Below, one piece after another: positions 1-64,000 of a DNA stretch of 64,000 nucleotides. Position 1 is the stretch's first letter, and each line of letters starts with the position of its first letter. The notes under the pieces are model-generated. The model made no database searches and was not told where the DNA came from. It worked only from the letters and a program-made list of their open reading frames with translations. The stretch covers positions 124,001-188,000 of the forward strand of contig OY253679.1 in assembly GCA_958009085.1 (NCBI GenBank), written 5' to 3'. The DNA is from Protoeuglena noctilucae. Lineage: Eukaryota. The translations under genes and the position numbers were made by a program.

Positions 1-847
1 GTGTTCGCCCCGCAGCGTCTTGACGTCCTTGATCTCGAAGGACTGCGCGGGCGAGCGACGGTGGCTGCGTGGCGAGCAAGCGACAACGGGCACGGGTGCA
101 TGGCGAGCGAGCGTGAGGGAGGCATCGGTCTTGGAAATCCCGGTAGGGCCCGCGCGCCTCGACGTAGAGGTCGTCCAGCCGCAGCAGCGCGACGGCGTCT
201 TGGACCTCGAAACCCAGAAGGAAGGCTTGCACAAAGTCGGCGGCCTTCTGCAAGGCGCCCACGTCCTCCGTGTCCGCCTTCGTCTTGATCTCCACCTTGC
301 GCGTCTTCAGATTCATCCGCATGTCCAGCTTCATGTGCTCCGTCACCGGCTTGAACAGCTGCAGCCAGTTGTTTTTCAGAGGCGTAAACCTGCGTGAGGG
401 GTCACCGGGACGGATTCCAGCGTAAGCGAGACAAAGAGACCACCACGAAGCTCTGAGCGATCCTCAGCGATCCACCGCACCTGTGCTGCGGGACCGGGAC
501 TCTTCGGAACTCGGTCTTGCGCCCCCCGCCCTCGCGCGCCCCGCCCTCGCGCGCCTCCGTGACTTTCGTCAGCGGCGGGAACTTCGGAGCTTCAACCGGG
601 GCATCCTGCGGTCGACAAAGGACCTCGAGATGCTGGGAGCGGCCGAGACGGACACCGCGCACGCAGATACACGCCGCTGACCCTTCGCTCCGTCCGTACG
701 CCGCCGCGCGCGACACCTTGAGCGGGTTGTACCGCGGGCGCGCAACGCCCATCGACGGACGCTATCTAACGCACGCCCGCTGCTCACCGCGGGCACCGCG
801 ACGGCCTCGGCAAGCACGTCGCCCCTCTTCTTCACGACCTTGGGCAT
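1..847 (-). CDS. PNO1: RNA-binding protein PNO1/Dim2 (KH domain, 40S biogenesis); 3' end runs off the window
   Basis: Exons 847-788, 605-481, 389-158 and 42-1 splice to MPKVVKK...EFRRVPVPQHRFTPLKNNWLQLFKPVTEHMKLDMRMNLKTRKVEIKT...LQKAADFVQAFLLGFEVQDAVALLRLDDLYVE|SFEIKDVKTLRGEH, which matches PNO1. Intron 157-43 is GC-AG. Confidence 0.95.
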
Positions 848-1284
848 GCTCCAGGCGGCCGGGCGCCGGAGCGCCGCGCGGGAAACGCCCCCGGCACCTA
901 GAAATATTCTACGGCGCTGCTCCGATGAGTCAGGCGCGTCAGGTACGGTACTGGCGGCGATCCTGGGGCGCCGGCCCTAGCACACAGAAAAGCCGCCGGA
1001 GCACGTCGCACGCAAGTCCGCGAGGAAGGAGAGCAGCACTGGCGCAGAGTGGGATGCAATATGCTGCAACGGGTGGCCAGCAACGGCTTAAAGGTGGCTC
1101 CGCCCGCTTGTCCCCGGCCCTGACTCGAGAACCCTGGCGGCGTCGGGCGGCCGTTGGCTGCGTGCGGGCGGCTGGGGTGCTCAATTCGCCGTCGTCGAGA
1201 AGAACAGGCGCCCCAAGCAGCGAGCTGCTCTTCGGATTCGTCTCGTCGTGCTCAGATCCCCCTGGCGTCGCAACGAAGGAACGC

Positions 1285-1936
1285 ATGCGAGTTGCCGGGA
1301 TCGAGGGGGCTGGAATTGATGAAAACGAGTTGGGCGGCGTTGCAGAGCAGCGGCAAGTCGAGGTTCATCGCGCCAGCTCCTCATCCCGAGGTGAGCCGCG
1401 ACGCCTCGCCGACCCGCGGTTTCTCCGTCGCGAGAGAACCTCGAATTGCCGGCCGCGGGTCCTGAGGAGTTCTGCTTCGCCGGTTTGGGGAACGCCGCTT
1501 CGCGGATGGATTGCGGCGTGGCCCTTCTCCGCTGGAATTCACTGCGTACTTTGCCCGCCTTGCTCCCCGCGTGGACTTGGTGCCCTTCCAGCGGCACCCC
1601 GGCCCGCGCGACGGCGCGCCAAGCGTTTGCGACCGGCCGGGGGCGTTTCCGGGCCCGCCAGCGGTGTCGAAGGCCGTTTCTCGATGCTGTTTCGGACGCT
1701 CGATCGCTCAGGGACACCCTCCGGGTCCAGGGCCCCCGCCTCGCGTGGCCCGCCCGCTTTTTTGCTATCGACCCTAAGCCCGCTGTCCCGCGCAGGCTGC
1801 GGCGAGACGGATGGCCCACACCTCGTGTTGAGAGAGGGAGACGTCGTCTTTGTTCGGGAGATCGGGCTCGAGTCGTCCCGCTGCCTGGTGAAGTCGCATT
1901 GGGGTCGCGCGGGCCACGGGCGAAGGAGGGGCAGCC
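1285..1936 (+). promoter_or_regulatory. eIF5 5' leader with probable intron (1391-1795) and poor-context upstream AUGs
   Basis: GAG|GTGAGC donor at 1391; ccctaag branch-like motif and cgcgcag acceptor ending 1795. Upstream AUGs at 1285, 1319 and 1811 all have a pyrimidine at -3; the main AUG at 1937 has G at -3. Transcription start unknown. Confidence 0.55.
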
Positions 1937-4735
1937 ATGTCCGGCCTGGTCAACATCGGGGCGGAGAACGCCGACGATGGGTTCTACAGGTGCGACGAGT
2001 CTCTCGGGCGTGCACGCTGGCGTCGCTGCGCTCGCGGCTCGACCGGCAATTCCGACGCGCTCCCGGCGGGTGCCGCGCAGGTACAAGATGCCGCAGCTGG
2101 TGGCCAAGGTGGAGGGCCGCGGCAACGGCATTCGCACCAACGTGGTGAACAACGGGGAGATTGCGAAGGCGCTGAGCCGGCCCCCCGAGTACGTGCTCAA
2201 GTACTTTGGGTGTGAGCTGGGGGCGCAGACGCGGTTCGAGAAGGACATGGGCACGTCGATCGTGAACGGGGCGCACACGCAAAAGGTGCTGTCGGACCTG
2301 CTCGAGGGCTTCATCAAGAAGTTCGTGCAGTGCTACACGTGCGGCAACCCCGAGACGGTCATGAAGGTGCGCAAGGACTTTGTCACGCTCAAGTGCAAGG
2401 CGTGCGGGGCCAAGTCCGAGGTCGACCCCCGGCTGAAGCTCAACACCTTCATCCTTAAGAACCCCCCCGAGGTGCGGAGCCGGATTTGCGGTGTTGTGGT
2501 GCTGGGTGCGTCGGGGGCATGGTGGCCGGCAGCGGCGACAATGGTCTCGGTCACTTGTGGTCGGCCCACCGTTGCATTGCGGCAGAGTGCGTGGGGGTTG
2601 AGACGAGGCTGGTCCGCCCTAGCTTCACCAGCCGTGCGGGCATCGCTGGAGTGAGGGCATCTTCACCAGGCGTGAGGGGTGACAAGGACTGATGCGTGAC
2701 TAGGAATCGTGTGATGCTCACAGGAGAAGATCTCCAAGAGTGAGAAGAAGGTTAAGGAGGACATGGAGAGCAAGGTCGGGGACCTGTTAGAGGCCACCAC
2801 GCCCAAGAAAGAGAAGGGGAAGGACAAGGACAAGGACAAGGCGAGGGGGGGTGTTGGTAGAGAGACTGCCTGCATGGGGTGGGATAAGCATGGCATTGCT
2901 GGAGCGTGTGCCTGCATGGGATGGGTCAGGCATTGCGGGGAACGGGGCGCGAGGTGGCACGCCGCTGCCACCACTGCGTCGTCGCTGTTCGTGCGATCGT
3001 CGCTAACAACCTCGTCATGCTGTCCCATTGCAGAAGAAGGACCGCAAGGATCGTTCCAGTAAGAGCAAGAAGTCCGAGGCGGAGGAGGGGCCAGGGGACG
3101 CGGCCAACGGAGAGGGGGCGGCAGCGGAGGGAGAGGGCGCGGGGGCGGAGGGGGCGCCGGCCGAGGCCAACGGCGCTGCGGGCAGCGAGGTGAGAGGCGG
3201 CGGGGCAGCGGGGCAGCGGGGCAGGGAAGAAGCGGGGCGGTGGAGCAAGGTGTTACCACGCTGGGGGTGTCTAGGGTGTCCAGGGTGTCAACCCTCCCAG
3301 GCAGGGGCAGCGCTGGCTGTTGGCCCAAGTTGCGCTTTCGTAGCCCCCCGCGCAGGACAGCGCAGACGAGGAGTTTTCCGTGGACACGTCGGCGGAGGCC
3401 GCAGCCGAGCGCGCGCGCCGGCAGCTGACGGGGGCGGCGGCCGCGCTGGTGTCGGGTGACCTGGCGAAGCAGGTGGTGCAGGGGGTGCGTCGGGAGGCGG
3501 AGCAGGAGGCCGAGGAGCGCGCGCGGCGCGAGCGCGAGGTGGCGGAGCTGTGCGAGCAGCTGCGGGGGTCCCTGAGCCTTGAGGACGCGGCGGCCAAGCT
3601 GCGGCAGGTGAGGGGCGGGGTGGGGTGGGGTGGGGTGGGGTGCACTTGGGTGGGAGTTGCGGTGGGGTGGGTGCAGTGGCGTGTTATTGGGCGGGGTGGG
3701 GGGTCGCGGTGGGGTGGGGTGCAGTGGGGTGGCGAGGAGGTGTGCGATGGCGGTTGGCCCTCTTGCCTCGCTTGTAATGGCTTTGCCTGAGCCACGGCAC
3801 GCCGGGTCAGAGACGGCTGGGTGTTTGTCTTATTCAAGTCACCCCCACACGGTCCTCCCCCCCGCAGGTGCTGCCCTTCAAGCGTCCCCTGGAGGTGCAG
3901 GAGATTGTGGTGGGCATGGCGGTGCCCAACGGGAAGGTCGGCCGCATGTTCGCGCTCTTCGACGCGGTCTTCACGGGGCCCGGAGGCGCCGACCCCGGCG
4001 TCAGGTGAGGCGCACACACCGCATATGAGCACAAGACCATCCGCATGCACACACCCTTTTTCTTGTGACGGCCTGCGCCTGGGCCACTCCCGATGGGATG
4101 CATGGAGAGTGTGTGCATGACGCAAGCCAGAGCCACACTCTCCTCGCCGTTGTGCCAACTCCGCATGGTATTATTGGTGACCCGTCCGTCCGCGTGTGCA
4201 ATGTGCCCCGCATGGCAAATTGGTAGCACATAGGTGCCTGTCTGCGTTTCTCTCTCCCAGGCTGGACAAGCTGGCGGAGAAGTTCAAGGCGTACCTGAAG
4301 GCCTGCGCCCCCGACGAGGCATACCAGGCGGCGCAGCTCATCGCCCTGGAGCGCCTGTGCGGGTTGTCGCTGCCGGCGCGCGTGAAGGAGGTGGCGCTGG
4401 TGATGAAGGTGCTGTACGAGTATGACATCGTGGGGGACGAGACGTTTGAGCAGTGGGAGGGGTCGGGGGACATCGTGCGCAAGTTCAAGATCCCCGCCGA
4501 GGGTGAGTCGGAGCATTTGGCAGGGACCGTGTGTGTCGCTGTGTCTATAAGGCATGGTGCATCAGTCGGGGAGGTTCGCGTGCACCGCTGGGACTGTGGG
4601 GCATGCCGGTGCGTGCGGAGGTGACTCAACATGCGCTCGCCTGCCCGTCTTGCAGCGTCGATGCTGGTGCGCACGGCGGCAGAGCCCTTCATGGCGATGC
4701 TCGCGGAGTCGTCGTCGGAGGAAGACGAGGACTGA
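1937..4735 (+). CDS. EIF5: Eukaryotic translation initiation factor 5 (eIF2B/eIF5 N-terminal domain plus W2 domain)
   Basis: MSGLVNIGAENADDGFYR|YKMPQLVAKVEGRGNGIRT...KYFGCELGAQT...FIKKFVQCYTCGNPET...CKACG, then a Lys-rich linker and C-terminal LYEYDIVGDETFEQW...PFMAMLAESSSEEDED*. Eight coding exons; GC donor at 2841. Confidence 0.96.
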
Positions 4736-7082: not shown

Positions 7083-9458
7083 TCACTCAAAGTCGTCATG
7101 CGGGTACTCCTCCTCCGCCCCGTCTGTCCCCAAGTCCTCCAATTCCCCTTCCTCCACCGTGGCCAGCCCCGCACCCGATGCATCGTACCCACGCCCACTG
7201 CGCGCACTCTCCGCCCTCGCGACCGCGTGGCCCTCCCCTGCGCCCGCGTCACCGCCCTCCTCCCCCTCCCGCTCGCCCGCGGCGCCCTGGGTCCCCTTCC
7301 CCGCAGCAGCATGTGCGTCCCTCGCACCGCCCTCCACCACTCCCACCTGCGCCCCCGCGCTCACCGCCCCCTCAGATCGCGGCACAATCCCGCCCGGCGG
7401 CCCTCCGGCTCCATTGCCCCCAGCCGCCGCCGCTGACGCTGACGCGGGTGCACCCCCCGCCCCCACCTCTGTCGCAACCACGGGCGCACGGTAGGGGCTG
7501 TTGCGGAGCCTGCCGGGAGAGGCCCTGCGCGGCGCGGAGGGCTGCGCTCGCGGCGCTTGCAGGGGGTCTCTCGCAGGTGGTCTCTCCCTCGCGGCGTGGC
7601 CCGTGGAGTGCGGGGATGGCTGCGGGGCCCGGGTGCCCCTCTGTGGCGCGGCTGGAAATGCGGCACGGCTCCTGCGATGCGAGACGGGAGATGAAACACG
7701 GTTTGCAATCGGCGCTTGCTGTGTGCGATCGAGATACGCGGCAGCAAGCATGGCAGAGGGAGGGCACGCCTGTCGCTGTCGGCACCAGGTGCAGAAGACA
7801 GTGCACCTGTGGCTACCCTGCGCAATCCACTGCATTCACCACTCACTACACAACCGCATGCCGTCGCCCCTCGTCACCTGGTCGACCCCAGCATGCCCGA
7901 CCCCTCCCCCCGCGTGGCCGCCGCCATGTATGCCCCAAACTCGGCCGTTTCCTTGGCCTCGCGGCTGCCCGCCACGGTGTGCGGGAGGGACTCGAGGCGC
8001 TTGGCGGCCGCGGCCATGAGCGAGCCCGTGGTGCGGGGGCCTTTCACTGTCGAGGGAGCGGGGCGGGCCGGGGGGCGGTGGCGCGCCTGGTAGCCGGGGA
8101 AGTGTCGGTCGCGGAATGCGGAGTAGGATGACCGAAAGGCCGCGAGCATGCCGGAACCCTCCCCGTACGCCGCCTCCGCCACCTGCGGGGCAGCGGAGGG
8201 TGGCGGGTGGCGTGGTGGGGTGGGGCGTGGTTGGTCGGGATGGTGCGTCCAAAGAGTTGGCAGCGGGTGGGACATGTGAGGTAGAACTCATGACATGCAA
8301 ACGTCCCCCGTCTACGCTTTGCATTTGAATCCCTCGCCTTGAGGCAGGAGCGGTAGGTGGAGAGAGCCGTGCGTGTCATGCCGCAGTGTTCCATCTCCAC
8401 CGCCATGTTGTGCAATGCCACAGCGAGGCTGCCGGCAGCGGGGGGCAGCTGGCCGCCGCACTCGTCCTCCAGCACGCGCAGCCACTCCTCCAGCGTCGGA
8501 CTGCGGGCAGTGGAGACAAGAGACTGACATCAGACTGACATGCGACACTCCACAGTGCGGCCCTCCCTCGTCGCCACCCCTTGTGCCTGTCATGGACCCC
8601 GCAGCCCGGCCCCAGGTCTCACCTGACGGCGTTGGGCCTCGGGGGCCGCACGGGCAGTGCCGACTCAACTTCCATCACCGCCTGCCGGGCATACTGCAGC
8701 GCGGAGCGGTGGTCTCCCAGCTTGCTGCACACCGTGCACAGGTTGAGCAGCGTGCTGGCCGGGTCCTGCGCCGCGAGCGGGAAGGCCTCCTCGATGTCCA
8801 GGGCCTCCAGGAGACACGCGAGGGCGTCCGCGTGCTTGTCCCGGTACTTGTGGAAGCATCCCAGGTTGTTCAGCGTAGCGGCGCGGAGGCGGGCGCATGT
8901 CTCGGGCTCGGAGCCCATGATGGAGTCCCCGCGAGTCAGCAGCTCCGCCTTATCCAAGAGATCTTTCGCCTGCGCACGCGGGGCGGCCGGACTCCGCGTC
9001 GCGGCTCGGGGAGCGATCGCCTGCACGCAGCAGTCTGCTCCCGCGACCCGCGCGGTCCGCGTGAGCCGCCGGGCTCCGCGGAATCACGAGCGCTGCATAC
9101 CATGGCGTTTTTACTGTCCTCCATCAGGTTCATCGCCGCGCTGTTGCACAGCGTGGCCAAATGCGCGCATGTGTGCACCGCGCAGTCCTCCTTCCCGTCC
9201 GAGACGAACTGAGAGGGGCACGATGCTCGCGCATTTCGAGGGAAGAAGCGAAAGGAGCGGGAGAGCTCCGCGGTCCTCGCGACGTTGCGACAAGCCCTCA
9301 TTATCTGGGGGAGCACGCACCTGCTCGAGGCCCCGCTCAAGAATCGCGATGGCTTCCATCTCCTCCCCCGCGTTCTTCTTTTCATCTGCCTCCGCTATCA
9401 GCTTCTGCACCTCCGGCGGCACGTCCATGGCCGGCACGCTGGGGATGGTGCCCAGCAT
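7083..9458 (-). CDS. TPR-repeat protein with low-complexity acidic C-terminus
   Basis: AATLNNLGCFHKYRDKHADALACLLEALDIE, ASTLLNLCTVCSKLGDHRSALQYARQA and AVALHNMAVEMEHCG...ALSTY are TPR-like helices. Six exons, GC donor at 8337, ends TGA. Confidence 0.8.
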
Positions 9459-9849: not shown

Positions 9850-10663
9850 TCACACGACCACCTGGTACTCCTTCCCCTGCGGCAGGTGCAGGGGCAACGA
9901 GCGTTGCAGCGCTGCGGTCGCGCCTGGCTCGTCGCGATCCAACGCGCAGCGTTGCATCCCTTCCCGCGCACCCCATCTCCGCGTGCTCGCCTGGACCAGC
10001 GCGTTCCAGCGCTCCTTTTCGTAGTCCTCGGGCGTCTTGAAGTCCAGGTCGCAGTACGAGCGCCACGTGAAGGTGTAGCAGTCGAGGCAGAAGATCTCGC
10101 TCTCCCATTTCTTCTTGCCCCGGCACTAGATCTGCACGAAGTGGTGCTCCTTGGTGTTCTTCGAGCCGCAGCAGAGGCAGTCGGGGAAGTCGTCGTTGCG
10201 CTTCCAGTTTGCCGACCACTCGTCAAACGTCATGACCTTGTAGCCATCGCCGATGGACGGGTTGATCTGCACCGGCTCGCCTGCGGCGACGACCGCACGG
10301 GGCACGCTGTCTTGGCAGCAGCGCGCGGGATCACGCGCGCAGGCTCGGGCTCGCGCAGCACAGCTGCGATGTACTAGTTGCTTGCACTCGCCATTCATGA
10401 TCTTGAGCCATTCGCGCGAGTGCACGAGCGCCCGGGGCGCCTGCTGCGTGGACGTCTCAATGTCGACCACCAGGTCCTTGTTGTACTGCAGACCCTCCGC
10501 CTCCTTCTTCATCTTGCCTGCGTGAAACGAACGGCACGTGGGGTGGGGGGCGCCGGACCCGCGCTGAGCCGCAGCACGGCTGCCTTCGGCCTGTCCTTGA
10601 TTCCATTCCCCGGTGCGCTGGGACGACGAGGCATCCCCGTAGCGTGTCACCACACGCAATCAT
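9850..10663 (-). CDS. Small protein with two Cys pairs (zinc-ribbon-like), carrying an in-frame TAG
   Basis: Exons 10663-10651, 10517-10392, 10280-9991, 9876-9850: MIACGKMKKEAEGLQYNKDLVVDIETSTQ...WLKIMN|GEPVQINPSIGDGYKVMTFDEWSANWKRNDDFPDCLCCGSKNTKEHHFVQI*CRGKKKWESEIFCLDCYTFTWRSYCDLDFKTPEDYEKERWNALVQ|GKEYQVVV*. GC donors at 10391 and 9990. Could be a recoded gene or a fresh pseudogene. Confidence 0.8.
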
Positions 10664-14689: not shown

Positions 14690-16090
14690 TCACCCGCGCC
14701 CGCCCCGCCTGGTCAACCCTGCACTCTCCGGCGCCAGCTTCAGCGCCGCGAGGACCATCTCCCCCAGCCCAGCCGCCCCGCACGCCTCCGCGAGCGCGCC
14801 CATGCCCCCCTCCGCCAGCTCCTCGAATGCGATGGGCAGACATCGCATCGCCTCTCTCGCATCAACAGACGCTGCGGTGTGCAACTCCTCCACTCGCACC
14901 TGCATGGCCTGCCAGGGCAGCGCCCGCACCCTTGCCACGAACTCTCGGCAGTCGCCCTCGTCCCCCTCCACCACGATAATGCCGGGGAAGCCGGGCTTGC
15001 AGAAGCCCCCCAGCCGCAGCTCCCGCGCCCACGCCACGATGTGGCGGCGCTTGCCGGGGTTCTGCGGGGCGTCGTGAGGCAGGGGAGAGGTGACTGTAGA
15101 TTGCGTGTTGATGACTCGCAATCGATGCAGTCATACACGCACTGGGTGCGCTGTCATTGCATCCATGCATGCACCGGGCTCGCACAGAGACTCTTTGCCA
15201 CGGCGTGGCGCCCCGCCCGAAGCATCCAGCCCCACCGCACATAGTAAGCATAAGCTGTCCCTTACCCGCATGGCCCAACTACAGAGTCCAAGTACTTGCT
15301 ATCTGACATCCAACGACGCTCATCGACCGACCCTTCACCTTGATGTGATGGAACCAGATGAGCCGCCTCCCCAGCGCCCAGTCAGCGCCATTGCGGCACT
15401 CTTCTTCCCGCACACGCTCCCCGTCAACCACCTCCCTGCCCCCACCCTCGCCCGCTAACTTGTCCAGCTCCTCCCCTCGCCTCGCCACCTCCTCCCCCAC
15501 CTCCTCCACCAACCCAAGCAAGCACCCCGCCCCAGGGACCCAGCAGCGCGACAGGGCGCATCCCGCTGCGTCTGCCAGTGCTTCTGCCAAATCGCGACCG
15601 GCCCCCTCAACACGCAGGCGCGTTGATGGGGGGGACGTGGCAGGGTAGTCAGGAGGCAGGGACAGCCGGAGAGTGACAGGGCGGCCGCCCACCTGCGGGT
15701 ATAACGACGCTCGGAGGAGAGCGTCGCAGATCAGATGTCAAGGGTGGTGGCGGCGCGTTGCTTGCACCTGCAATTGGCTGAGGGGGCGCTTGCCTGGGCG
15801 GAGGGCAGCTGAAGGGCGCATGACAGGGCCGGGTGCTGCCACCCTGCGCCGTTCCCACCACCGCATATACTTCGTGCGTCCTCAATTGCTGCGACCTCAT
15901 CGGGCTCCAAAATGACTGCGGGAAGGACGCATGGTAATGTAATGGACCGCATGGGCTAAAACAGCGCGTCCAGGCTGCCAGGCGGGCCTCGCGCACCTTC
16001 ATCGGGATACATGCATTGCAGAGCCTCGATCTCCTCGATCTGAGCCTTCAGCGATTCCAGGTTTGCGTCCGCGCACGCCTCGGCGCTCAT
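14690..16090 (-). CDS. RWD-domain protein, RWDD2 family
   Basis: MSAEAC...QIEEIEALQCMYP, LSLPPDYP (RWD motif), RRLIWFHHIK|NPGKRRHIVAWARELRLGGFCKPGFPGIIVVEG...FVARVRALPWQ. The frame requires a GC donor at 15793. Confidence 0.88.
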
Positions 16091-22800: not shown

Positions 22801-25800
22801 CGCCACCCCCCTTGACTCCCCATCCCCATCCACATCCGTGCTCCCCTCCCCCGCACCCTCCGAAGCACCCACCCAGCTTCCCCCGGCGCCCCGCGGCCCG
22901 ATCCGCGCACCCGACCCGCTTTCCACCACAGGGGACAACCCCGCGGGCCCAACGGCAACCCCATTACCACCCCCACTACCACCTGCACCAATACCCACAC
23001 CCCCACCCCCACCCGCACCACCAGCCCCACTTGCACCGTTCGGCACCGCCGCCCACCCCCTCTGCGGCGGCTGCAGCTCCAGCGACGGCGCCACGCGCCT
23101 CACAGAGACCGCGGAGTCGAGGGAGCGACGCGAGGGCGGGGGGTCCATCGATAGCCTTAGCGTGTCTTGCGAATTACGCCCAGCTGCAGCTGCGGCGGCG
23201 GTGCTTGCGCCCCATGCAAGTGCTGCGTCCGGGGCTGCGGTGTGCACAGCCACAGTGGGGTTAGGGCTATCGGCAGGGGCCACACGCCCGCTACGCCCGT
23301 TGGGGCCCGCCGCCACCGCCACCACCGGCGCAAACGTCATCCCCGCCCCTGTTGCCGTCACTGCTCCTGTTGTTGTTCCGTTTGCTGGGAACGGCGACTC
23401 TCCCGCAATCCCCGGCGCTACCCTGGCGCTCCCCGCGCCCCACCAGGCGCCGCCGGTTATAGCAGCCGGAATGGCGCGTGCGGCCGTGCGCCCCTCCCCG
23501 CCCCCACCCCCTCCCCCCGCACTGCTGTCGTCCCTATCGACACCCGTATCTGTGTTATGGCTGCGATCGTGGTCTCGTTCTCGCCCGTTCCTGCCCTGGG
23601 GCAGCGTGCTGGACCCGTGGCGGGAGGGGGTGAAGGCGTCGGATGGGCGGAGAGCTGAGGTCGTGTCGGGGAGGAGGAGGATGCCGCGGACTGAGAGAGG
23701 GAGAAGGGGTGAGGATGGGGTGAATGTTAATGTGAATGTGGGGTGTTGATGTTAGGTGTAATATGACGTGAGGGGTGTTGATGTGAGGGGTCAGTGGGTG
23801 TGGGGTGTTGCTGTGAGAGGGGGGAGGCGGTGTCGGGGAAGAGGAGGATGCCACGGACTGAGGGGGGAGGGGGATGGGGAGGGTGGGTGATGTGAGGGAT
23901 GGGGTGAATGTGGGGTGTTGATGTGAGGGGTGTTGATGTGAGGGGTGTTGATATGAGAGGTGTTGATGTGAGGTGTCGGGACATCACGACGTGGCACCCC
24001 GCGTCGACGGATGCAAGTGACACTAACATGCGCCTGTCTCTGGCCATTTCCCATCAGTCTCATCTCGCCTGTCTGCGTGCCCACGGACGATGCCGGCCCC
24101 TGGTCCCCCCAGGGCGGTCCGCTCTCAGGGGCAGACACGGAAGGGGAAGGCGCGGCTGGGGGGATGAGAAGGGAGGTGGCAGTGAGGAGTGCTGAGTAGT
24201 GAGAGAGGTGGTAAGTGATTGGTTCAAGCTGCCACCTAATTGCTCCCCGCTCACCTGCTTGGTCCATGGCCTCACTGCCCGTCCACCTGCAGCAGCCTCA
24301 GCACAACCACAGTGTTCTTTGAAGCTGTTCCCTTCCTAGTATCACTGCCCGTCCGCCTGCAGCAGCCTGAGCTTGGCCGCCGTGTCTTTGAAGCTCTCCC
24401 GCCTCCCCAGCACGGGCTTGGGAAGCGGCGCGGCTCCCTCGGCGTCCCCCTCCGCCAGCGACGGCAGCGATGGCACGCGGGTGTCCAAGTGCGTGGGGGA
24501 GGAGAGGTCACCGCCGGAGCTTGGGCGCTTGATGCTCGCGGACACGCCCAGGCGCTTCTGTGGGGGGGAGTGGGGTGGGGTGGGTGGTTAGGTGGATGTT
24601 GGGAGGTGGCTATCGTGTCATGCACATGTGACATATGAAGCGGGGGGTAGATGATGGCAGTCCGTGGCGCTCCGTCCCCCCCTCTCTACTTCGACAATTG
24701 CAATACAAACAGTGCAGGACAGCTCTCGCCTGCGACAGGCTCTTGAGCGCCTTGAGTCGGTCCGTCTCCGTCACACGCACGGGCTCGGCAGCCCCAGCGC
24801 TACCACCAGCAGCTGAGGTGGTGGCGCCGATCTCGGCGTTGTCAGTGTCGATCCCAGCGGTTGCGATAGCGTTGGGGCTGGTCGAGGCGAGATAAGGGCT
24901 GGGGGCGGTGAGGTCGTGGTCGTCTTTTTCAAATGGGTCGCCCAGTGCGTCCTCGGTGAGACTCGAATTCGGGATCACCGCGTGGTCCTCGTGGTAAATC
25001 TGGGGAGATGTGAAAAAGAGAATCCAGGTGAGAGTCGAAGGGGGGGACCGCAGACGCGACGCAACAGGGTGAGGGGAGACAAAAGACAGAGGCCAGTGCC
25101 AACAGCGGACTCCTAGTCCCTGACCAATTGACATGAGCATTCGTGCCAGCATCGCACATCTAGCAACTCGTGCGTCCATCGTGCTCTGCCCCGGTGTGCA
25201 TGGCAACCCCCCTCTCGCCTGCGACCCCCTTCGGCGGAAGGAGAGGCTCCGCAGCGCCGCCTCCTTGGTCCCCTGCGACACGGGACCGACCGACGCGGCC
25301 GGGGCGGGGCGGGGCGGCGCTTCGCCGGACGGCGCACCCTTCAGTGACCGCAGCCGCAGCAGCCCCGGGCGTGCGGGGGGCGAGGAGTCCTGCTCCCCCG
25401 GGCTCTCCGCGTCTTGTGACGCTTCGGATTCCTCCTCAGGGTCCCGCTGCTGCGACGCGGACACGCCCAGGCGCCGGGAGCGGAACGACGCGATCGCTTG
25501 CAAAGGGGCGGCGGGGGTGGGGCGCGAGGCGGGGGTGCGGGAGGAGGGGGAGCGGTCGGGGGAGAGGGGGGAGGACTCGCGCGCGGTCACGAACGACGGG
25601 TCGGCTGCGGGGTGGCGGATGGGAAGGTTGAGTTGGCACATGGCACGTGGCGACAATCAGTGGCGCTAGCTGCCGGCGCAGCCCTGGCCCACCTTGCGCG
25701 GGTCCCGCGCGCGCGGCTGGGCTCAGGAGCGACGCGGGGCGCGGGCGCGCGTCGCCGTGGGAGGTTGGCGCGGTGGGCGAGGGGGAGGGGGAGGGGCTCG

Positions 25801-44600: not shown

Positions 44601-45560
44601 GCGACGCTGATGCTCGATCCGTCCGCGAAGCCGGTCGCGAAGTAGCCCACGGTAGAAGACGATTCGCACATCACGGCGTCGTTGCCGCGGCCGCTCGCGG
44701 TGTGGCAGCCGAGAGACACGACAGCGACGGGGGGGTCGTCTTTGAAGTCTGCGCGCGCGGGAGTGGGCCGGCGGGGTCGCAGGAAGGTAAAGGATAATAC
44801 GAAATCGCGACTGCGGGCGGCGGCGCACCGGGGAGGCCGGTCGGGGGGTCCTGCGGGTCGGGCAGGCATGGGCGACAGCAGACCGCGGGGGAGAGCGGCA
44901 CGAGGCCGCCGCCGAGCATCCAGGAGCCGATGTGCTCGAAGTCAGCCACGAAGAAACCGTCCTTCTGCGCGGGCGGGCGGGCGCGGGGGTCGCTGCCGGC
45001 GTCGTGCAGGTTGCCCTAAGAAGAAGACCGGACGAGCCGGGCGCCGGGGGGCACGCCGACCCGCGGGACGCTGTCCGGAGAGCAAAGCATCGACACTCGC
45101 CTCGCAGCTGAGATTCCCGGGCTCTCCCTGCGCCGCCTCGCAGTCACAGAGGGACAGCTGGGCCGTGGCACCCGTGGGGGCCACCTCGCCCGGGCCGCGG
45201 ATCGCCTGGGCATGCGAGTCGCCGAGGAACGTCACACGCGGTGCGAACGCGGCGTCGGCGAGGGCCAGCGCCGGGGCGAACGCCAGGACGACGGCTGCGA
45301 GCGTGGCGACACGGGACGCTGCGGGGGCCGCGGGTGCGGGGGCGTCGTCGAGCCCGGTGGGCGCGGGAGGTGTCTCTATGTCTCGTCGCTTCGCCCCACG
45401 CCGGCAAACGCCCCCGCTAGGCGCTGCTCGCGCGTGTCCGGCCTCCCAGCATTGCGTCGCGCAAGCATGACGAGGGCGCGGGGCCGCCGGGCCGCGCCGT
45501 TGTCAGTGCGCGGCACTCACCACGCCCCGAGCGCCCCGGCCGGCGAGCCGAAGCCTTCAT
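41655..45560 (-). CDS. Type I membrane RING-HC E3 ligase with Cys-rich and EGF-like ectodomain
   Basis: Signal-like [18 protein letters not shown]; Cys-rich segments ([21 protein letters not shown]); [92 protein letters not shown] donor at 45100. Confidence 0.85.
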
Positions 45561-45914: not shown

Positions 45915-47323
45915 ATGGCGAAGGAGGACGAGACGAAGGCCAGCGGCAGGGAGAAGCGGCCTGCTGCATCGGAGACTGCCCCAGAGGATGCCCGTCCGTA
46001 TCGCGTGCAGCTGGAGTCGTATGGATGGCTGGCGAGCGGCAGCACGGGTACGCGATGGCAGCGGAATGAGGACCGCCCGCGTCCGCGCACATCCCTGCGT
46101 CGATTCGGCATCCCGTCCTCCCCCGCAGCCGGGAAGCGAGCGAAAGTGATCGAGGGCGTCGGCGGAGCGACGGCGCTGGGCCTGAAAGCGCAGCTATACA
46201 GCGCGCAGGAGGCAGCGCGGCAGCGTGGCCCCGGCATAGCTGCGCCGAGCGCGCGGGAGATCGCCGCGCTGCGGGACCCGTATGCGCGCAAGAACCGTGG
46301 ACTGGAGGAGCGCATGGCGCGCGACGACGCGGCGCGGGCGGCGGAGGACAAGGAGGCGACGTATCGGTGCGCAGGGATGGTGCGCAATTCATGGCGATGC
46401 GCGTGCGGAATAGGAGATTTGCGCGCTTGACTTTTTCTCCTATGTCACCTCCTCACGCAGATCCAACTTGGAGCGCAAGGCTGCGCTTTACGAGCGCCTG
46501 GCGTCCGGGGCAGCAGCGGACGGGGACGGGGGCGAGGCGTCAGCGCGATTCGAAGTGGACTTCCTGGCCAAGAGTTTTAAGGGTAATGCGGGGGCCGCTG
46601 TGGGGGAATCGAGCTGGCGGGACGCGGGGGGCGACGCGTGGGATGGGGACGGGTGGGGCGGGTCGGGGGTGACGGAGGCGGACGGGCGGCGGATGGTGTC
46701 GCGGGCGGGGGTGCGGGGCCGCGCGGGGCTGGGGGACGCGGCGGAGGGGCGGGCCGCGTGGGAGAGAGACGAAGCGGAGGTGGGGAGGGGCGGGGATGCA
46801 TGGCGGGTGGTGTTGCAGAGCGCACTGTCGCGCAGCGATGCGCAGTGCAGCCTCGCGTGGGCGGGCGATGCCTCGGGGTGTAGCAGCGATCGGCTTGTGT
46901 TGTTTCGAGTGCCTGCAGCGCGCGGTGGCGGCGGAGGCGCGCGCAGAGGAGGAGCGGCAGCGTCGGGTGCAGCTGGTGCGGGAGGTGGGCGCCGAGACGG
47001 CGGAGGGCCGGGCGCGGGCGGCAGAGCTGCGGCGGAGGCAGCAGGACGAGCGCAGCGCCAAGAGGGAGCGGCTCAAGGCCATGCTGATCGAGCGTCGCGT
47101 CGCGGAGGCGAGTGCGATGTGCTGCGACGTGTTTGCATGCGCTTGCGGCGTTGCTCCTCTCTGTCCGGGCCTGGCACAGTCTTGATTTCTTCAAGATATC
47201 AATGATGTCTCTCGAGCGCAGGAGAAGGCCAAATTGGAGCAGGAGTCCCCCGGGGTCATCGTAGAACTGACCAAGCCCGCGCCCGCGCCGGACAGCCGCG
47301 AGGGAGGAGGCGCGGGGGGCTGA
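45915..47323 (+). CDS. CCDC174-like coiled-coil nuclear protein
   Basis: IEGVGGATALGLKAQLY, KNRGLEERMARD, LERKAALYERL, RFEVDFLAK, then a charged coiled coil. GC donor at 47108; TGTAA at about 47378. Confidence 0.7.
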
Positions 47324-47768: not shown

Positions 47769-50100
47769 ATGCCGCCCCTCATGGCAGCGGACGTCCCGGC
47801 CTTCGTGAAGGCCTGGGAGACGACGTTCAAGCCCGGCCGCATCCGCGTGGGCTGCGCCATCGACGGATCGACCGCGGCCGAGCAGACCTACGAAGCCATG
47901 GCCAGGCGAGGGGCGCAGTGGGCGAGATGGTTGGAATGTCATATAGTGCGACTTCCCAGGCTTTGCAAGGGGTATTGTGACGCTAACAGGAACACTGTAC
48001 TGTGCTGGGGGCGCCATGTTGCATCCGCCCGCACCCTGCACTGTGCGTCACCCAGCATCTATGCTGCAATCTGATGCATGTGTCCTTTTGGGTGGGGCCG
48101 TTTGAGACCGGTTGCCTTGCTACGCCCCCCCTTTTCGGCAGGGCACCTGCCACAGCACGTCCGTAGTACTAGCATGTGGACTAGCATGCCCGTGGCATGT
48201 ACTTGTGAGCCTCTGCAACTTTTGACAGCGTCGAAAGTTTCCAGCTGAGAAGAAACGTGACGAGCAGCACGGCGAAGCAACTTAGTCCGACAAAGGCTGT
48301 CGTTCTCTTTCTGCCGCTCATGTCGGACTAGTTCTCTTCGCCGTGCTGCTCGTCAGAGTTTCTTGTGACCTCGATGCTTTTGACGATGTCAAGGTCGCGA
48401 TGCTCACGTACATTGCATGGTGCATGCCACCGTTGCACTAACAGTGCCTGTCCTGCAATGTGATGCATACGTCCCCACGTTGCAGTAGAAGTACTACTCA
48501 CTCCATCCGATCCCCGCCCCGCCCCTCCCCGTCCCCAGGATGTGCAAGGCTGAGGGGATGGACGTGTTCGTGCTTCACGTGACCACCCCCGAGGCCGCCC
48601 GGGGGGACTACCGGGAGAGCCCCGCGCACTTGATGCGGCAGTACGAGATGCATCGCATGCACTACATGCCGCTGGTGCCGCAGCAATTCATCTCGAGAGA
48701 GAAAGCCCCGGGACGCGGCACGGCCGAGTCGCTTTTACAGCTGGCAGATGAGTGCGCGCTGGACATCCTGTTCATGGGCGCACACGGGCGCAAGGGGTTC
48801 AAGGCGGCGCTGGGCAGCACGGCGGCGGCGGCGATGCGCCAGGCGGCGTGCTCGGTGTGCGTGGTGGAGCATCCGGAGCCCCACGACATGCTGTCCAAGC
48901 GCAAGTGGGTGGTGGCGGTGGACGGCGGGCGCGCGTCCATGATGGGTGAGTTGTCTATCGGTGTGAGTCAGTGTGAGTTAATGTGAGTAACCCGTCATTT
49001 GTGTGCTTGGATAGGCTGGGATTGGGTGAGGGGCGGGGCATGGCAGACGTGTGGTGGGTGCCGTCGTGCATGGGTACACAGGCGTAGCTAGACTACTATG
49101 GAACCCTGAACTCGCCTCATCCTTTCCCCCGCAGCGTTCGCGTCGGTCCTCAAGACGTACGCCCAGCCCGGCGACACCATCTGCGTGTGGATGGAGGACT
49201 TTCGGCCGTCCGCGGAGGCGAGGGGCGACGATGACAATGTACATTATCGCAATACCTTGGCACATTATGGCATGCTGGCTTGGCCTGCATGCACACCACA
49301 TCACATCGCATCGCGTCGCTAACCTCGGCACTCCCTCATCGCGACTCACCGCATCGCACCTCACCGCATCGCATCGCTTACTCCGTCACAGCACTCACAT
49401 CGCCACCCGCCCCGCCCCGTCTCTCTGCAGATATCCTTGGACCCCTTCCGCCGCGCATTGGAGGAGGACGGCCGGTTCAAATTCTAAACCAAGTTCATCC
49501 TCATGCCGGATCAAGGGGCGGGCTTGGAGCATCCAGATTCAGGTGAAGAGGACAGAGGGAAGTGGACGAAAGAGGGGCGACATGCTTGACACAACATCGA
49601 TGCAGCCTCTGCGGTGATAAGGGTGTGTCTGGGGTGTGTGTGTGGGCGGGGAGGGGCAGCATGCAAGGAGATCGCGCTCTCCCTCACCACGCAAACCCCC
49701 CTGTCCCCAACCCTGCACTTCTCGCAGTGCCAGAATCTCTGGTTTCGCGCGCCGAAAGAGCCCAAGCCGACTACCTCGTGATGGGCGTCTCGGGGCCCGT
49801 CAAGCTGGGGAGCGTGTGCGACAGCGTGCTGGCACAGGGGTGAGGTGCATCCTGCAGCACATTGGCACGTGCTATGGTGTGGTACTACGCAGGCGCCCAT
49901 TGTTGTTGTTGCGATGGCGATGAGTGAGTCAATGGACAGAAGGTTGCCTCTCAACGCATCATACTGAAGCCCTATTTGTTCTGCCCTATCACCGCAGTTG
50001 CCACGTGCCCGTGTTGATGTACAAGGATGACGGGGAGGCCAGCAGCAAGCGGAACTTGGAGAGCGCCATTGGCAGGTCGCCCACCATCAAGGGGATGTGA
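47769..50100 (+). CDS. Tandem universal stress protein (two USP domains) with an in-frame TAA
   Basis: IRVGCAIDGS, VLHV, DILFMGAHGRKG...LGSTAAAAMRQAACSVCVV; second domain WVVAVDG...DYLVMGVSGPVKLGSVCDSVLAQGCHVPVLMY. Exon 49431-49542 contains TAA at 49485-49487. GC donors at 47906 and 49218. Confidence 0.85.
48184..48427 (+). ncRNA. Intronic long imperfect hairpin, candidate pre-miRNA/hpRNA
   Basis: 48258-48277 (TGACGAGCAGCACGGCGAAG) is the exact reverse complement of 48336-48355. Pairing extends inward (tagtccgaca/tgtcggacta) and outward with bulges and G:U pairs to gcatgc at 48184 and 48427. Confidence 0.62.
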
Positions 50101-53758: not shown

Positions 53759-58816
<5,058 letters not shown>

Positions 58817-59091: not shown

Positions 59092-61653
59092 ATGACTCTC
59101 TGCGGCGTTACCACCGCGCTGCCCCTGGCCCGCAATGGCGCATGGGCCCGCAGCACCTCTCGCCGCTCCAGCGCGGGTGAGGTGGCGGGGGAGGTGGCGA
59201 CGGGCGCGTTCGGTAGTAACGAGCGCGTAGGAGCCGCGCGGGGCCCGGCGCGCCCCGCTCGTCGCCCCCCGCGATGGCGGAAGCCGGACGACTTTGATGG
59301 ACCCGCCGAGCGGGCTTTGGGGGCGTCCGCAGCGCGCGCGGGCCATACACGGTGCTTTTCCCGACATGCATTGTCCCGGTAGCCACTTGGGAGGTCGTGA
59401 TGTCCTTTCTCGCCGGCGGACTCGCGCTCGCCTCGTTGGGATCCTTCCGGAGCCGTGCCACGCGACCCCCGATCCCCGGGGCGACCCTGCCGATGCTGGA
59501 GGCGTGTTTACGATCCCGTGCTGCGTGCGGCGCCCCCGCTGCGCCCTTAACGTTGCCGGGCGCGCCCATGCGCGACCAGCGCGCTGGATGCCGCACGACG
59601 GGCCTCCGACCGCCTCCCCACCTGGACGCCCCCGCCCCTCCCCGCCCGCAGTCGTCCGCGCCGTGAAGGACAAGCAGGCGATCGCAGCCGTCACCGCCGC
59701 GGCGCTCCTCTCCGCCCCCTCGGCCAAGGCCGACTCGATCGGCGGTGCGTGTCTCCCTCCCGCCGCGCCCCCCGGTCCCCGCCCGCCCCTTTCCGGCATC
59801 TATCCGAACTCTCCTCGTTCCCGCGCACCTCCCTGCAGACGCCGTGGACTCGATCACGGCGGGCGTGCAGACGGCGGGCGATGCGGCGCGCCTGGCTGTC
59901 GACTCGGCCAAGGCTGCCCTGGAGGTCGCCAAGCAGGCCTACGAGGCTGCGGTGCCCGTGGTGACCCCCTACGTGAAGCAGGCCGCGGAGGTGGCGGCCC
60001 CGGTGGTACAGGAGAGCGTGAAGCTGGGGACCAAGGTGGCGGGGGACGCCTTCAGCGCGGTCGGTCCCTCTCTGGATGAGGCGCTCAAGCAGGCGAGGGC
60101 TGTGGTGTGTGTGTTTGTTGGGATGTGCGGGTGGTTGTGATCAGGTTGGGAAGCGGTGAGGACTGGAAGCGGTGAGTTCGTTGGCATCTGCTCTGTGTGA
60201 GAGATGGTGCTGGCTCAGTCTCTCTCCATCTCACACCCACCCACAACCCACCTCAACAACCTCACAACCCCCCCTCCCTCTCCCACCCCAGGCCACCGGC
60301 GCCGTGGCCGGCCTGGGCATCGACGACAAGCTGGTGGACAGCGTGGCCACTGCCGCCAAGCCCGTTGTCTCTGCCGCGGGTACCGTCGCCGGCAGCGCCG
60401 CCGAGGTCCTCGCCACCTCCAGCCCCGTCACTGCTGCCGAGTACGTCGCGGTTGCCGCCCTGGGTGTCTACCTCACCCCCTCGCTCTTCGGCCTGCTGTT
60501 CGACTTGCTTCGCGGGTACCGGGGCGACCTCACCGCCACCCTGGCAGTGGACAAGCTCCAGTCGGACCGGTCCGCGGTGCTGGTGGACGTTCGTGCTGCG
60601 AAGGAGAAGGACGTGGCTGGCCTGCCCGACGTCCCTGGGTCGGCGGCCGCGCGTTTACTGGCCGTGGAGTTCGCCACCACCGAGGACCGGCAGCTGCGCA
60701 ACCAGCTGCGCAACCCCACGGCGGTCGAGACCACCGTCACGGCGCTGCAGGTGAATATCGGGGGGGGGGGGGGGGGGATGGTGGTGGATGGGTGGTGGTA
60801 GTGCGTGGGGTGGTGTGGGGGGGGTGCGCGACGGTGGGCAGTGTGTGTTGTTGTTAAGGGCGGCACTCCATCGCTCCATCGTTAGTTTTACTCGATTGCC
60901 GCTACCTCTTGCCACCCCACTCCCACACTCGCCTGTACCCCACTCACCCCACGCAACCCCCACCTCTACTTACCCCCGCTCAACCCCACCCCATTCATCC
61001 CCCCCCCCCCCCCCCAACCCCAGATCGCCAACCTGAAGAAGGTCGCCAAGGGCTCCCCCATCCTTCTGCTGGACCAGAACGGCGGCCAGTCCAAGTCGGT
61101 GGCTCGCGAGCTCTCTCGCCTCGGCTTCAGTCAGGTGTATGTCGTGGAGGACGGCTTCAAGGGGTGGGTGGCGTCCAAGCTGGCCACCAAGGAGGGGGGG
61201 TTCACCACCACGGGTGAGTGTTATGGATATATGTGTGATTAGCCACGTGTATGTATATATGTGTGATAAGTCAGGGTGTATGTGGTCGAGGATGGCTTCA
61301 GGGGGTGGGTGGCCTCCAAGCTGGCCACGAAAGAGGGGGGGTTCACCACCACGGATGAGTTATTGCAATAGCGATAGCGATAAGTGTGAGAGATGTTCAG
61401 GGAGTGCTCACCACCATGGGTGAGGGAGGGTGATGGCGACAGCTGGAATGGTGGCGATAACTGTGGGCGGCACCCACCTCGCTCCCTCCCCACTATTACC
61501 CAAACCAACATCTCTCATCTCCTCCCCCCATTCGCAGTCCTCCCCGGCAGCACCATCTTCGGCCGCCCGGGCACCTCGGTGGTCCCCGCCACCTACGACG
61601 CCAGCAAGGCGAGCGCCAACGGCAAGAGGGCACTCCCCTCTCCGCGCAAGTGA
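59092..61653 (+). CDS. CAS: Thylakoid calcium-sensing receptor CAS (rhodanese-like)
   Basis: Bipartite transit peptide ending SAKA, TM segment, RGYRGDLT...LVDVRAAKEKDVAGLP...LRNPTAVETTVTALQ|IANLKKVAKGSPILLLD...VARELSRLGFSQVYVVEDGFKGWVASKL. GC donor at 60093. Confidence 0.9.
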
Positions 61654-61798: not shown

Positions 61799-61826
61799 CT
61801 CTCTCTCTCTCTCTCTCTGCTCTCTC
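61799..61826 (+). repeat. (CT)n microsatellite in CAS 3' region
   Basis: About 10 CT units followed by a short degenerate run. Confidence 0.85.
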
Positions 61827-62085
61827 TTACTCTAGCGTTTGAAGACTTGAGAAGAAAGCTGGTTGTACTTTGCGAGCAAAGTACAACGTCGATACCAAGT
61901 GACATAACAACTTTCAAAACGCATTGCCTGGCATTATCTCTGCTAGTGAAAGAGTCTGGTAGTTTGTGGATATCACGCTGTGCTGCCATTGTCCCCTCTG
62001 CCACCCCTCCACCCACTGCCTCTCTCACTCCCCACCTCCCTCCCTCTCAATCCCATCACCCCACCCCACCCCACCCCACCCCCCC

Positions 62086-64000
62086 TCACTCCCCCCCCTC
62101 CCTCTCCCCCCTCCTCTCCCCCCTCCCCACCCTCTCCAGCCACATTGGCTTCCCCCCCACATCCGAGTGACCCCCCACCCCTCTCTTCCCAATCGCTGAC
62201 AAACTCTCCTCCAATTGCCGAGCAAACTGCTGCGTGGCGCTGCTCTGGTGGTCGTGGCTGGGGGGGATGACCTGGGGTAGACAGGGATGTGTGTGGATGG
62301 AATGAAACCATACTGTTAATTTGAAGTCAGTAACACTGCAGTGGCTAAGACAACCACCCCCACCCCCACCCTCCCTCACCATGCCCCCCAGGTTCATCGC
62401 GTTTGCCGCCTTCGCCTTGCTCTTCTTCTGTTCCGATAGCCTCGACTGGGCATAACTGCGAATATTCTCCGTCTCAAATGCGATGCGGAATCTCTGGCGG
62501 GCCTCGCGGGTGCAGGAGATGGCGCCGGTAGTGAGGTCGACGCGGGAGGGGGTGAGCTGGGGAGGGGCGAGAGATGGGGGGCATTGATGCTATATACAAT
62601 GTAACCGATCATACCAGTCACTCATTCTATTACCAGTATTACTATCATTAGCAGTCCACCACTCACCACCACCTCCGTGAGATGCGACACCTTGAAGCCC
62701 CGGTCGGACATCAGCCACCCATCACATCATCACCATAACCACTATAATTTATCATCATAATTATCATTATCACCACCCCTCCATCCCCACTCACCACCAC
62801 CTCCGTCCGATGCGACACCTTGAAGCCCCGGTCCGACAGGACGTCGATCAACACCTCGCACGCCAGCGGCTGGTCGTCCCAGAACGGGGCCGTGCTGGTG
62901 TATTCGAAAAACCCGGCCAGCGACGATTTCAAAACCCCCGGCAGCACCTCCTCTTCAATGACAGACACCACTTGGTCCAGCAAAGGGCGGTGGTCGGTGT
63001 AGTAGCGGTCCAGCCGCTGCACCAGGCTCTGGCGGGACTGCATTGGGGAAAGTAAGCAATATCTTTGAGTGTAATAGATATTATATGTTTGAAATGTTTA
63101 ATAGCAATAGCGGTCCAAGCGCTGCAACAGGCTCCGAGAGGACTGGGAGGGAGGGGGGGACAGGGAGGAAGAGATTAGGTTATACTATGATTATAATTAC
63201 TATAATGGTTAACACAAAAGATCTACATTACTAAATATTTTATATTTATACAATATTTATAACATTTATTGTTTAGGTTATGATACTATGATAGCACCCC
63301 CCACTTCCTTGGCCAGCGGCAGGTGCGCCAGCGCTCAGTAGGTCCGTTGTAAGTGACAACCATTACATATGACAGTATAATAACATACATTCACTATAAA
63401 TATAACACCCTCACCTTGGTGACCACTTCCTTGGCCAGCGGCAGGTGCGCCAGCGCTCGGTAGGTCCCCTCTAAGAGATCCAGGGAGCTCTGGTATCGTA
63501 GCTCTTGCGCAATTTGCTGTTGGCACGACTCCAGGGATCCCATGGCGTCGATCAGGCAGAAGGGGAAGTGCTGGGGGGTTGGGACAGGGGTAACAGGTGA
63601 TACGTCATAGCTATAACATCTAAAATTAAGTGATAGTAAAAGTAAATCAGTAACAAACGATAATGACATAAAATAACAAAGTAAAGTGATACGTGACCAA
63701 TAGATACCACCGCGTCTCGCCTGCATGAGCCTCAGCAGCGTGCCGTAGTGCTGCTCGAATATCAGGCACCAAACAGTCACATGATTCATAGATAACATGA
63801 CCCATACATACAACACCGTTCTCTCGCCTGCATGAGACGTAGCAGTGTCCCGTAGTGTTGTTTGAATATCAGGTACCGCTGCTGGGCCTTCTCTATGTCC
63901 ACGTCCGTAGCACGAACCTCCTCTGAGGAACAAAGCACGATAGTAAATGGTGTCAAGAAGAATGTTCTTATAAGAAAGAAGGCAACCAAGCATCATTGGA
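62086..64000 (-). CDS. 3' part of an adenylate-kinase-like protein with C-terminal extension; 5' end outside window
   Basis: RATDVDIEKAQQRYLIFKQHY, HFPFCLIDAMGSLESCQQQIAQELRYQSSLDL, RQSLVQRLDRY, LIDVLSDRGF, PSRVDLTTGAI resemble, from memory, an atypical NMP-kinase family. The P-loop is not in the window. GC donor at 63827. Confidence 0.6.

Follow-up and report, generated by a model that had tools for sequence, protein, structure and literature searches.

The U at the second intron position (+2) is one of the most conserved letters of eukaryotic genes; C stands there in about 1% of introns in most lineages but in 15-55% in a few algae. A 64,000-nucleotide stretch of the Protoeuglena noctilucae genome (contig OY253679.1, positions 124,001 to 188,000; hereafter the window) bears on this contrast in a GC-rich marine green alga: a preliminary description of its letters listed 22 introns that start with GC instead of GT and end with AG (GC-AG introns), and offered relaxed recognition of +2 and GC-biased substitution as possible causes. 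The analysis reported here confirms that the high GC-AG share is real and genome-wide, and indicates that the two causes act together, not as alternatives.

GC donors in the window

The window has 64.5% GC and lies on contig C12 of a 27-contig, 26.3-Mb assembly. The letters GC stand at all 22 listed donor coordinates on the strands described, as read directly (Table 1). RNA evidence came from the contigs of four metatranscriptome runs of one study, aligned to window positions 44001-64000, with runs X5, X6 (small share) and X11-X14 (no words) left out; 15 of the 48 joints were examined, and every equivalent register was enumerated for 14 of them. Ten of these 14 joints are GT..AG and four are GC..AG without any possible GT register. 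The fifteenth joint, AC..TT with a short side of 21-23 letters, looks like a paralogue artefact and was dropped. The RNA alignments list no letters that differ from the genome, a result that does not bear on editing at +2 or at the in-frame TAA at 49485. In agreement with the proposal that conserved sequence forces some of the GC donors, homology fixes the donor at 57101, where residues 166-220 and 221-267 of AFG3L2 (6nyy_A) match the flanking exons, and the donor at 10391, across whose junction homologues are contiguous. Likewise, two of the 13 modelled junctions in the Prp8 gene of this genome are GC and gap-free in alignment to homologues, one of them within an invariant stretch.

Genome-wide share of GC donors

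Introns were predicted with a two-strand hidden Markov model (HMM) gene finder with forward-backward posteriors, written for this analysis, in which G was obligatory at +1 and equal priors were assigned to C, A and G at +2, so that GA and GG donors serve as decoys. Four window genes seeded the finder, which then trained itself on 79 stretches of 10 kb scattered over 23 contigs, the window excluded; together the stretches make up about 3% of the genome. Introns were called confident at a posterior above 0.9 at both ends (1,071-1,072 of 1,253 Viterbi introns). Of the 1,072 confident introns, 189 have GC donors (17.6%; 15.3-19.9% when stretches are bootstrapped), a very high frequency, as had been claimed from the window. 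Such donors are present in 70 of the 79 stretches, with no heterogeneity detected (p 0.34).

This share was further challenged by varying the prior at +2. With a prior of 0.7/0.1, the confident introns comprise 878 GT, 189 GC, 4 GA and 3 GG donors; a flat prior gives 734, 197, 6 and 10, and a prior of 0.97/0.01 gives 930, 153, 1 and 0, respectively. Expectation-maximization converges at +2 to 0.20 for C, 0.01 for G and 0.00 for A, and GC is called about 30 times as often as the decoys. Planted donors were recovered alike (GA 149/200, GG 134/200, GC 147/200), also after exon ends other than AG; thus, the finder neither favours C nor creates the exonic-AG rule described below. It recovers 13 of the 14 RNA joints exactly, a check that is not fully independent because those joints lie in seed genes. 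GC is probably undercounted by the finder, which mislabelled one real GC donor, in CK1, as GG. A genome-wide share of about 1-2%, with nearby GT sites as the donors in use, had been named as the outcome that would speak against the preliminary description; the predicted share is 17.6%, and the RNA-read GC sites allow no GT register.

Within the window, the finder reports 122 Viterbi introns (91 GT, 24 GC, 4 GA, 3 GG), 89 of them confident (72 GT, 14 GC, 2 GA, 1 GG). Among the 22 listed sites, 17 have a donor posterior above 0.9 and the one at 21373 reaches 0.67, whereas those at 9990, 15793, 36310 and 36680 (all at or below 0.03) are unconfirmed candidates, whose frames are open across the junction when joined by hand. 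The site at 9990 is not predicted because an in-frame TAG upstream blocks the gene model. A confident GC donor is present in 93 of the 209 complete predicted genes with introns, Prp8 among them; a GT-only annotation would therefore mis-splice many genes of this genome.

Dependence on U1 pairing

The earlier consensus AG|GCGAG describes the larger sample well: the 189 GC donors carry -2A in 95%, -1G in 99%, +3G in 85%, +4A in 94% and +5G in 99%, compared with 55%, 93%, 94%, 73% and 89% at GT donors. Exonic AG precedes 178 of 189 GC donors and 444 of 876 GT donors, so it is indeed nearly constant before GC and often missing before GT. The GC share is 26-30% after exonic AG in every phase and 1-5% otherwise; an effect of phase, considered separately, vanishes after correction for AG at the exon end. 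GC and GT introns resemble each other in GC content, length (median 127 vs 130) and acceptor (-3C in 99% of both, with similar matrices), and by their termini, donors and acceptors the GC introns belong to the U2-type GC-AG class. In the 79 stretches, the 5' ends of introns are rich in G and their 3' ends in C, and a weak branch motif is present (CTRAC in about 10%).

The GC share follows the match to U1 small nuclear RNA (snRNA) at the other six U1-matching positions, from 0/53 with three matches to 10/523 with four, 127/420 with five and 52/74 with six. Correspondingly, each U1/U5-pairing position raises the odds of a GC donor in a logistic fit (z 3.4-9.6; positive terms for -3A, -3C, -2A, -1G, +3A, +4A, +5G and +6T), in which no effect of +7, +8, phase or intron GC content was found. 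The dependence of GC on the other U1 pairs points to use of the normal U1, and the larger effect of -3A than of -3C suggests that U5 loop 1 contributes besides U1.

Neutral composition and the cost of +2C

The ratio GCG/(GCG+GTG) is 0.686 in intergenic DNA, 0.81 at synonymous sites and 0.47-0.52 in introns (0.47-0.58 for intron interiors), and the GC share of donors with a 6/6 context, 0.70, matches the intergenic value. That the share rises with U1 match up to the intergenic ratio suggests that C costs about one U1 pair and that GC bias fills the permitted sites. In line with this, a null model built from the GT donors alone and treating +2C as one ordinary lost U1 pair predicts 108-297 GC donors (189 observed). 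The same model predicts 76-949 GA or GG donors, of which 3-4 are observed; crude as the model is, this deficit indicates a separate check that removes purines at +2 and spares C. In strong contexts, the GC share also climbs with the CpG retention of the intron itself, from 0.28 to 0.48 (p 0.001); the CpG observed/expected ratio is 0.94. Nucleosome-linker CpG periodicity, a DNMT5-type idea, was considered as a driver and rejected, as the CpG autocorrelation is not periodic. Genes for METTL16-like and C5 DNA-methylase proteins are present and, besides the spliced methylase genes, three C5 DNA-methylase matches lie in long open frames (C21:426430, C6:60845 and C23:379692; L173-L175) that are possibly borne by mobile elements.

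GC-biased substitution thus finds support as a cause in the agreement between the best-context share and the intergenic ratio, but it may not suffice alone, because the equally GC-rich Micromonas commoda has 0.7% annotated.

Lineage and relatives

The Prp8 matches are chlorophytes. In a FastTree phylogeny of 38 Prp8 proteins (the non-redundant algal entries and three land plants, out of 120 matches), the protein of this genome groups with three other proteins and Pedinophyceae sp. YPF-701 at an SH-like (Shimodaira-Hasegawa) support of 100. The host is therefore probably a pedinophyte, as judged from a one-gene tree without bootstrap that contains one named pedinophyte and few named prasinophytes and in which long-branch joining is possible.

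One metagenome scan yielded 80 Prp8 loci, and the finder was run on six of them. Two loci, L093 and L096, were placed as relatives by Prp8 identity (89% and 82%), by residues shared with the clade and by synteny. L093 has GC donors at three of eight introns and L096 at all four clear introns (leaving aside a first intron that was not resolved and two decoy calls judged spurious), whereas four more distant loci gave seven GT donors, no GC donor and one decoy call. High GC-donor use thus extends to at least two related lineages. Orthologous introns in relatives had been proposed as a check for GT-to-GC shifts, and one such case was found in CK1, where AAG|GTGCGC in this genome corresponds to AAG|GCGAGC in L093, and the stronger +4A belongs to the GC donor. 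Introns come and go very fast in this clade: Prp8, with 13 or more introns in this genome, is intronless in L093 and carries one or two in L096, at other positions, and the CK1 core has five introns here and three in L093 with no shared position, while gene order is kept (L090/L091 vs L093 and L096; L185 vs L093).

Spliceosomal machinery

The preliminary description had suggested a variant U1, U6 or Prp8/U1C, and the snRNA part of this suggestion was not supported. In searches that scored the best candidates only (41 of 427 for U1), one U1 locus with a canonical 5' end was found, and the U6 ACAGAGA box and U5 loop 1 are canonical. The compensated 5' end expected of a U1 with a compensating G matches exactly at four places (about the number expected by chance; control 2), none of them U1-like, and no such U1 was found. 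No U12 match was found at E<=0.1 (best 42 of 119 candidates scored; U11 outside the search).

A loosening at the protein level is likely, and Prp8 is the best candidate for it. Prp8 keeps the QACLK stretch, which contacts the donor GU. In 67 listed alignment columns, each at least 93% fixed in the other sequences, it carries a different residue, and many of these differences are common to the three relatives and not to YPF-701. In human numbering they include G667T and, in the RNase H domain, G1867T, M1868L and H1875N; position 1867 is T, S or A within the clade, and YPF-701 keeps G, M and H at 667, 1868 and 1875. In Caenorhabditis elegans, Prp8 G654E is reported as a suppressor of cryptic 5' splicing (PMC9723624). 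By offsets, G654 maps to human G662, five residues from G667T; because the Prp8 differences are so many, this nearness is a lead only. U1C differs from the human protein, its only comparison, at T11S, Y12F and R28L among other positions, and its gene (L092:2382-3100, G000 C1) probably has a GC donor of its own, apparent by eye at L092:2753.

It may be proposed, tentatively and with considerable doubt, that the clade-shared Prp8 substitutions, possibly together with the U1C changes, ended the discrimination between U and C at +2 after U1 leaves, with purines still excluded. If so, the C allele at +2 would be almost neutral wherever the donor is otherwise well paired, and neither a transposon invasion nor an altered snRNA would be involved.

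A proposed mechanism and its alternatives

On balance, and with moderate confidence, we favour a reading in which the major spliceosome, its snRNAs unchanged, removes these as ordinary U2-type introns, +2 need only be a pyrimidine, C costs about one U1 pair, and GC bias fills the permitted sites. First, as the statistics above indicate, +2C would cost about one U1 base pair and would persist only where -3, -2A, -1G, +3R, +4A, +5G and +6T pair well. Second, the U5, U6 and Prp8 steps would reject A or G at +2 and add little cost on C. Third, consistent with the best-context share, GC-biased substitution would push +2 at permitted sites to the neutral C:T ratio of the genome, with local CpG decay tempering this drive, for an overall outcome of 18-20% GC. 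We infer both the near-neutrality of +2C and the tolerance at later steps.

Several observations weigh against this reading. The top-class share of 0.70 exceeds the intron-interior ratio (p 0.03 vs 0.58), and neutrality depends on the reference chosen, because the intergenic, intronic and synonymous ratios differ. The bin-by-bin fit of the null model is imperfect and its range wide. The CpG effect is weak (z 1.9 in a joint fit; p 0.054 with the gene's other introns), and GC donors show no clustering within genes. The genome-wide counts are predictor-based, and the RNA-read junctions number 14, from one study. Lastly, human GC donors are reported to compete well in strong contexts already (PMC6280755), so a change of the spliceosome may be unnecessary.

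That last point leads to the alternative that survives best, although we consider it unlikely: a wholly ordinary spliceosome, with a rate that follows from high GC, the +3G GYG context and many AG-ended exons. Compensation at GC donors is described in five model species (PMC1557818), GC-AG shares in pelagophytes are reported to track genome GC (14-17% vs 0.32%; 10.1101/2024.10.30.620910), other green algae reach 5.6-8.5%, and the snRNAs and the QACLK stretch are unchanged. It is harder to reconcile with M. commoda (63.8% GC, 0.7%) and Micromonas pusilla (65.9% GC, 5.6%), both annotation-based, with the failure of intron GC content to predict GC donors within this genome, and with the GC-rich non-clade loci L169/L170, which have GT at four of four donors in a tiny sample.

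That GC donors arose with transposon-derived (introner) introns or through duplicated AG|GC proto-splice sites, in bursts long past whose traces have decayed, appears improbable. Such an origin would suit the fast turnover of intron positions in Prp8 and CK1, and introners with GC donors are reported in Pelagomonas (10.1101/2021.10.25.465678) and dinoflagellates (PMC11282704). No introner families were found among the 1,071 introns, that is, in about 3% of the genome, where small families could escape: a cross-locus BLAST match exists for one of the 1,071, a GT intron. Moreover, terminal complementarity of GC introns shows no clear excess (4.76 vs 4.67 +/- 0.07 shuffled; GT introns have a small one, 4.91 vs 4.68), exons after GC introns are not enriched for a GC start (p 0.26), and the junction repeats of GC introns equal those of GT introns.

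Even less probable is positive selection for GC at over-strong donors, capping U1 binding or serving regulation. The strongest class has a GC:GT ratio of 52:22, above the intron-interior ratio, and the GC sites, if they carried U, would pair at a mean of -10.8 kcal/mol, compared with -8.5 kcal/mol at real GT sites; however, the 52:22 ratio equals the intergenic neutral one, and 99 GT donors stronger than -11 kcal/mol exist. Handling of GC donors by a compensating-G U1 variant, by the minor spliceosome or by C-to-U editing is very improbable, given the single U1 locus, the compensated-end matches unlike U1, the absence of a U12 match in the searches above and the U2-type donors (99% +5G), even though a U1 variant has been suggested for copepod GA donors (PMC7072748) and the snRNA searches covered the best candidates only. 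Finally, an artefact in which nearby GT sites are the true donors is scarcely credible: an in-frame GTR lies within -27..+30 of 76 of the 189 GC donors and the predictor errs, as in its spurious GA/GG calls in L096, but the four RNA joints, homology (57101, 10391, two in Prp8, CK1), decoy symmetry, the planted-site control and the 153 GC among 1,084 introns that remain under a 0.01 prior all contradict it.

Comparison with known systems

In five model eukaryotes, GC-AG introns are reported at 0.37-0.87%, with compensation (Sheth et al. 2006, PMC1557818), and the plant mean is given as 1.2% (Pucker & Brockington 2018, PMC6310983). The U2-type GC-AG introns of model eukaryotes share with those described here a stronger U1 match elsewhere, the same acceptor and GT-GC switching between orthologues; they differ in that here the share is 18-20%, the consensus is AG|GCGAG, including +3G, and the best context holds more GC than GT donors.

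GC-rich donor sets are already known from pelagophytes, Emiliania and dinoflagellates. Aureococcus anophagefferens and Pelagomonas calceolata are reported to have 14-17% GC-AG, which the authors credit to genome GC (10.1101/2024.10.30.620910; 10.1101/2021.10.25.465678). These are likewise GC-rich marine picoalgae with a similar share, but they are stramenopiles with, as described there, less than one intron per gene and repeated introners with GT or GC donors, whereas the genes here are intron-rich and intron families were not found in the sampled 3% or so. Introners with GC donors are also described in PMC4540971. Emiliania huxleyi is reported to use about 55% GC donors (PMC7779022), and in dinoflagellates GC-AG is reported as dominant in introner-derived introns (PMC11282704). 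Both show a genome-wide tolerance of +2C, as here, but are unrelated lineages with higher shares, and the dinoflagellate case is tied to introners. GA donors also occur in dinoflagellates; with GA and GG donors below 1%, this genome has no counterpart of them.

Among green algae, shares computed from the annotation-based counts of GC-AG plus AT-AC introns in file 8 of PMC6310983 are 173/2,044 (8.5%) in Ostreococcus tauri, 8,057/114,347 (7.0%) in Micractinium conductrix, 7,090/124,435 (5.7%) in Chlorella sorokiniana and 496/8,831 (5.6%) in M. pusilla, with 36/5,375 in M. commoda. These chlorophytes likewise exceed the plant mean, but at half the present rate or less, in a table without a pedinophyte. 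No literature report of GC-AG enrichment in a pedinophyte was found (subscription papers lay outside the search); the word 'splice' is absent from the main text of the YPF-701 preprint (10.1101/2021.10.04.463119; supplements outside the search), and 'GC-AG' from PMC12574857. New here are the lineage, a rate roughly double the top value found in the green lineage (8.5%), and the evidence for +2C as one lost U1 pair drifting to neutral composition.

These introns offer a clean green-lineage case, in which neither introners nor altered snRNAs were found, and hence a natural system for the conservation of +2. They support a quantitative rule, by which C costs one U1 pair and its share saturates at the neutral ratio, and they point to specific Prp8 residues open to tests in model organisms.

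Echo copies and other features of the window

In about 3% of the introns, which are longer and G/T-rich, the neighbouring exon end and its splice site recur once or twice inside the intron (25 donor-side and 17 acceptor-side among 1,250 introns, vs 0.25 shuffled). Such echo copies, exemplified in Table 1 and also found in L003, L010, L054 and L058, could seed alternative sites or new introns. GC is carried by 5 of the 31 echo copies of GT donors, which, like the CK1 intron, shows GT and GC interchanging directly.

Table 1. Listed GC-AG introns of the window and examples of echo copies, with the evidence for each; posteriors are those of the HMM finder
Coordinates	Strand	Feature	Evidence
43..157	-	GC-AG intron; gene presumably PNO1/Dim2-like	donor posterior 0.93
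2841..3033	+	GC-AG intron; gene presumably eIF5-like	posterior 1.0; open frame
8183..8337	-	GC-AG intron	posterior 1.0
9877..9990	-	possible GC-AG intron, last of small Cys-rich conserved gene	not predicted; homologues uninformative here
10281..10391	-	GC-AG intron, donor TG|GCGAGT	posterior 1.0; homologues contiguous
15693..15793	-	probable GC-AG intron (candidate); gene presumably RWD-like	posterior 0.03; joined frame open over 316 aa
20894..21373	-	GC donor, acceptor uncertain	posterior 0.67 / 0.60
23691..24068	-	GC-AG intron	posterior 0.99 / 0.87
24558..24729	-	GC-AG intron	posterior 1.0
25000..25218	-	GC-AG intron	posterior 1.0
36310..36476	+	possible GC-AG intron	posterior 0; joined frame open
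36680..36782	+	possible GC-AG intron	posterior 0; joined frame open
45016..45100	-	GC-AG intron	posterior 1.0 / 0.96
47108..47221	+	GC-AG intron	posterior 1.0
47906..48538	+	GC-AG intron, acceptor by hand; gene presumably USP-like	donor posterior 1.0; model took other acceptor; joined frame open
49218..49430	+	GC-AG intron	posterior 1.0
57101..57288	+	GC-AG intron, AFG3/FtsH-type protease gene	AFG3L2 match on both sides; posterior 0.99
57433..57595	+	GC-AG intron	RNA joint in 4/4 runs; GC..AG sole fit
58064..58219	+	GC-AG intron	RNA joint in 4/4 runs; no GT register
58430..58594	+	GC-AG intron	RNA joint in 4/4 runs; no GT register
60093..60291	+	GC-AG intron	RNA joint in 4/4 runs; no GT register
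63571..63827	-	GC-AG intron; exon end plus GC donor echoed at 63720	donor posterior 1.0; joined frame open
18440-18560		echo copy	
55180-55310		echo copy	
55505-55690		echo copy	
57075-57190		echo copy	
61140-61360		echo copy	
63715-63860		echo copy	

Two genes of the window contain in-frame stops. The TAG at 10126-10128 (minus strand) lies in a small Cys-rich algal protein, where 22 of 22 homologues have Trp; TAG is an ordinary stop in this genome (48 of 228 predicted genes), and the codon may be a nonsense allele, a consensus error or a site of A-to-I editing. The modelled USP-like gene contains a TAA at 49485-49487 (plus strand), with the frame open on either side. Three near-identical gene copies on the minus strand (5206-6586, 11416-12572 and 34130-35617) encode a secreted-looking Gly/Asn-rich repeat protein, with one repeat per exon, phase-2 introns and AA|GTGAG donors. 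A 200-N assembly gap at 19517-19716 falls within a low-complexity gene region.

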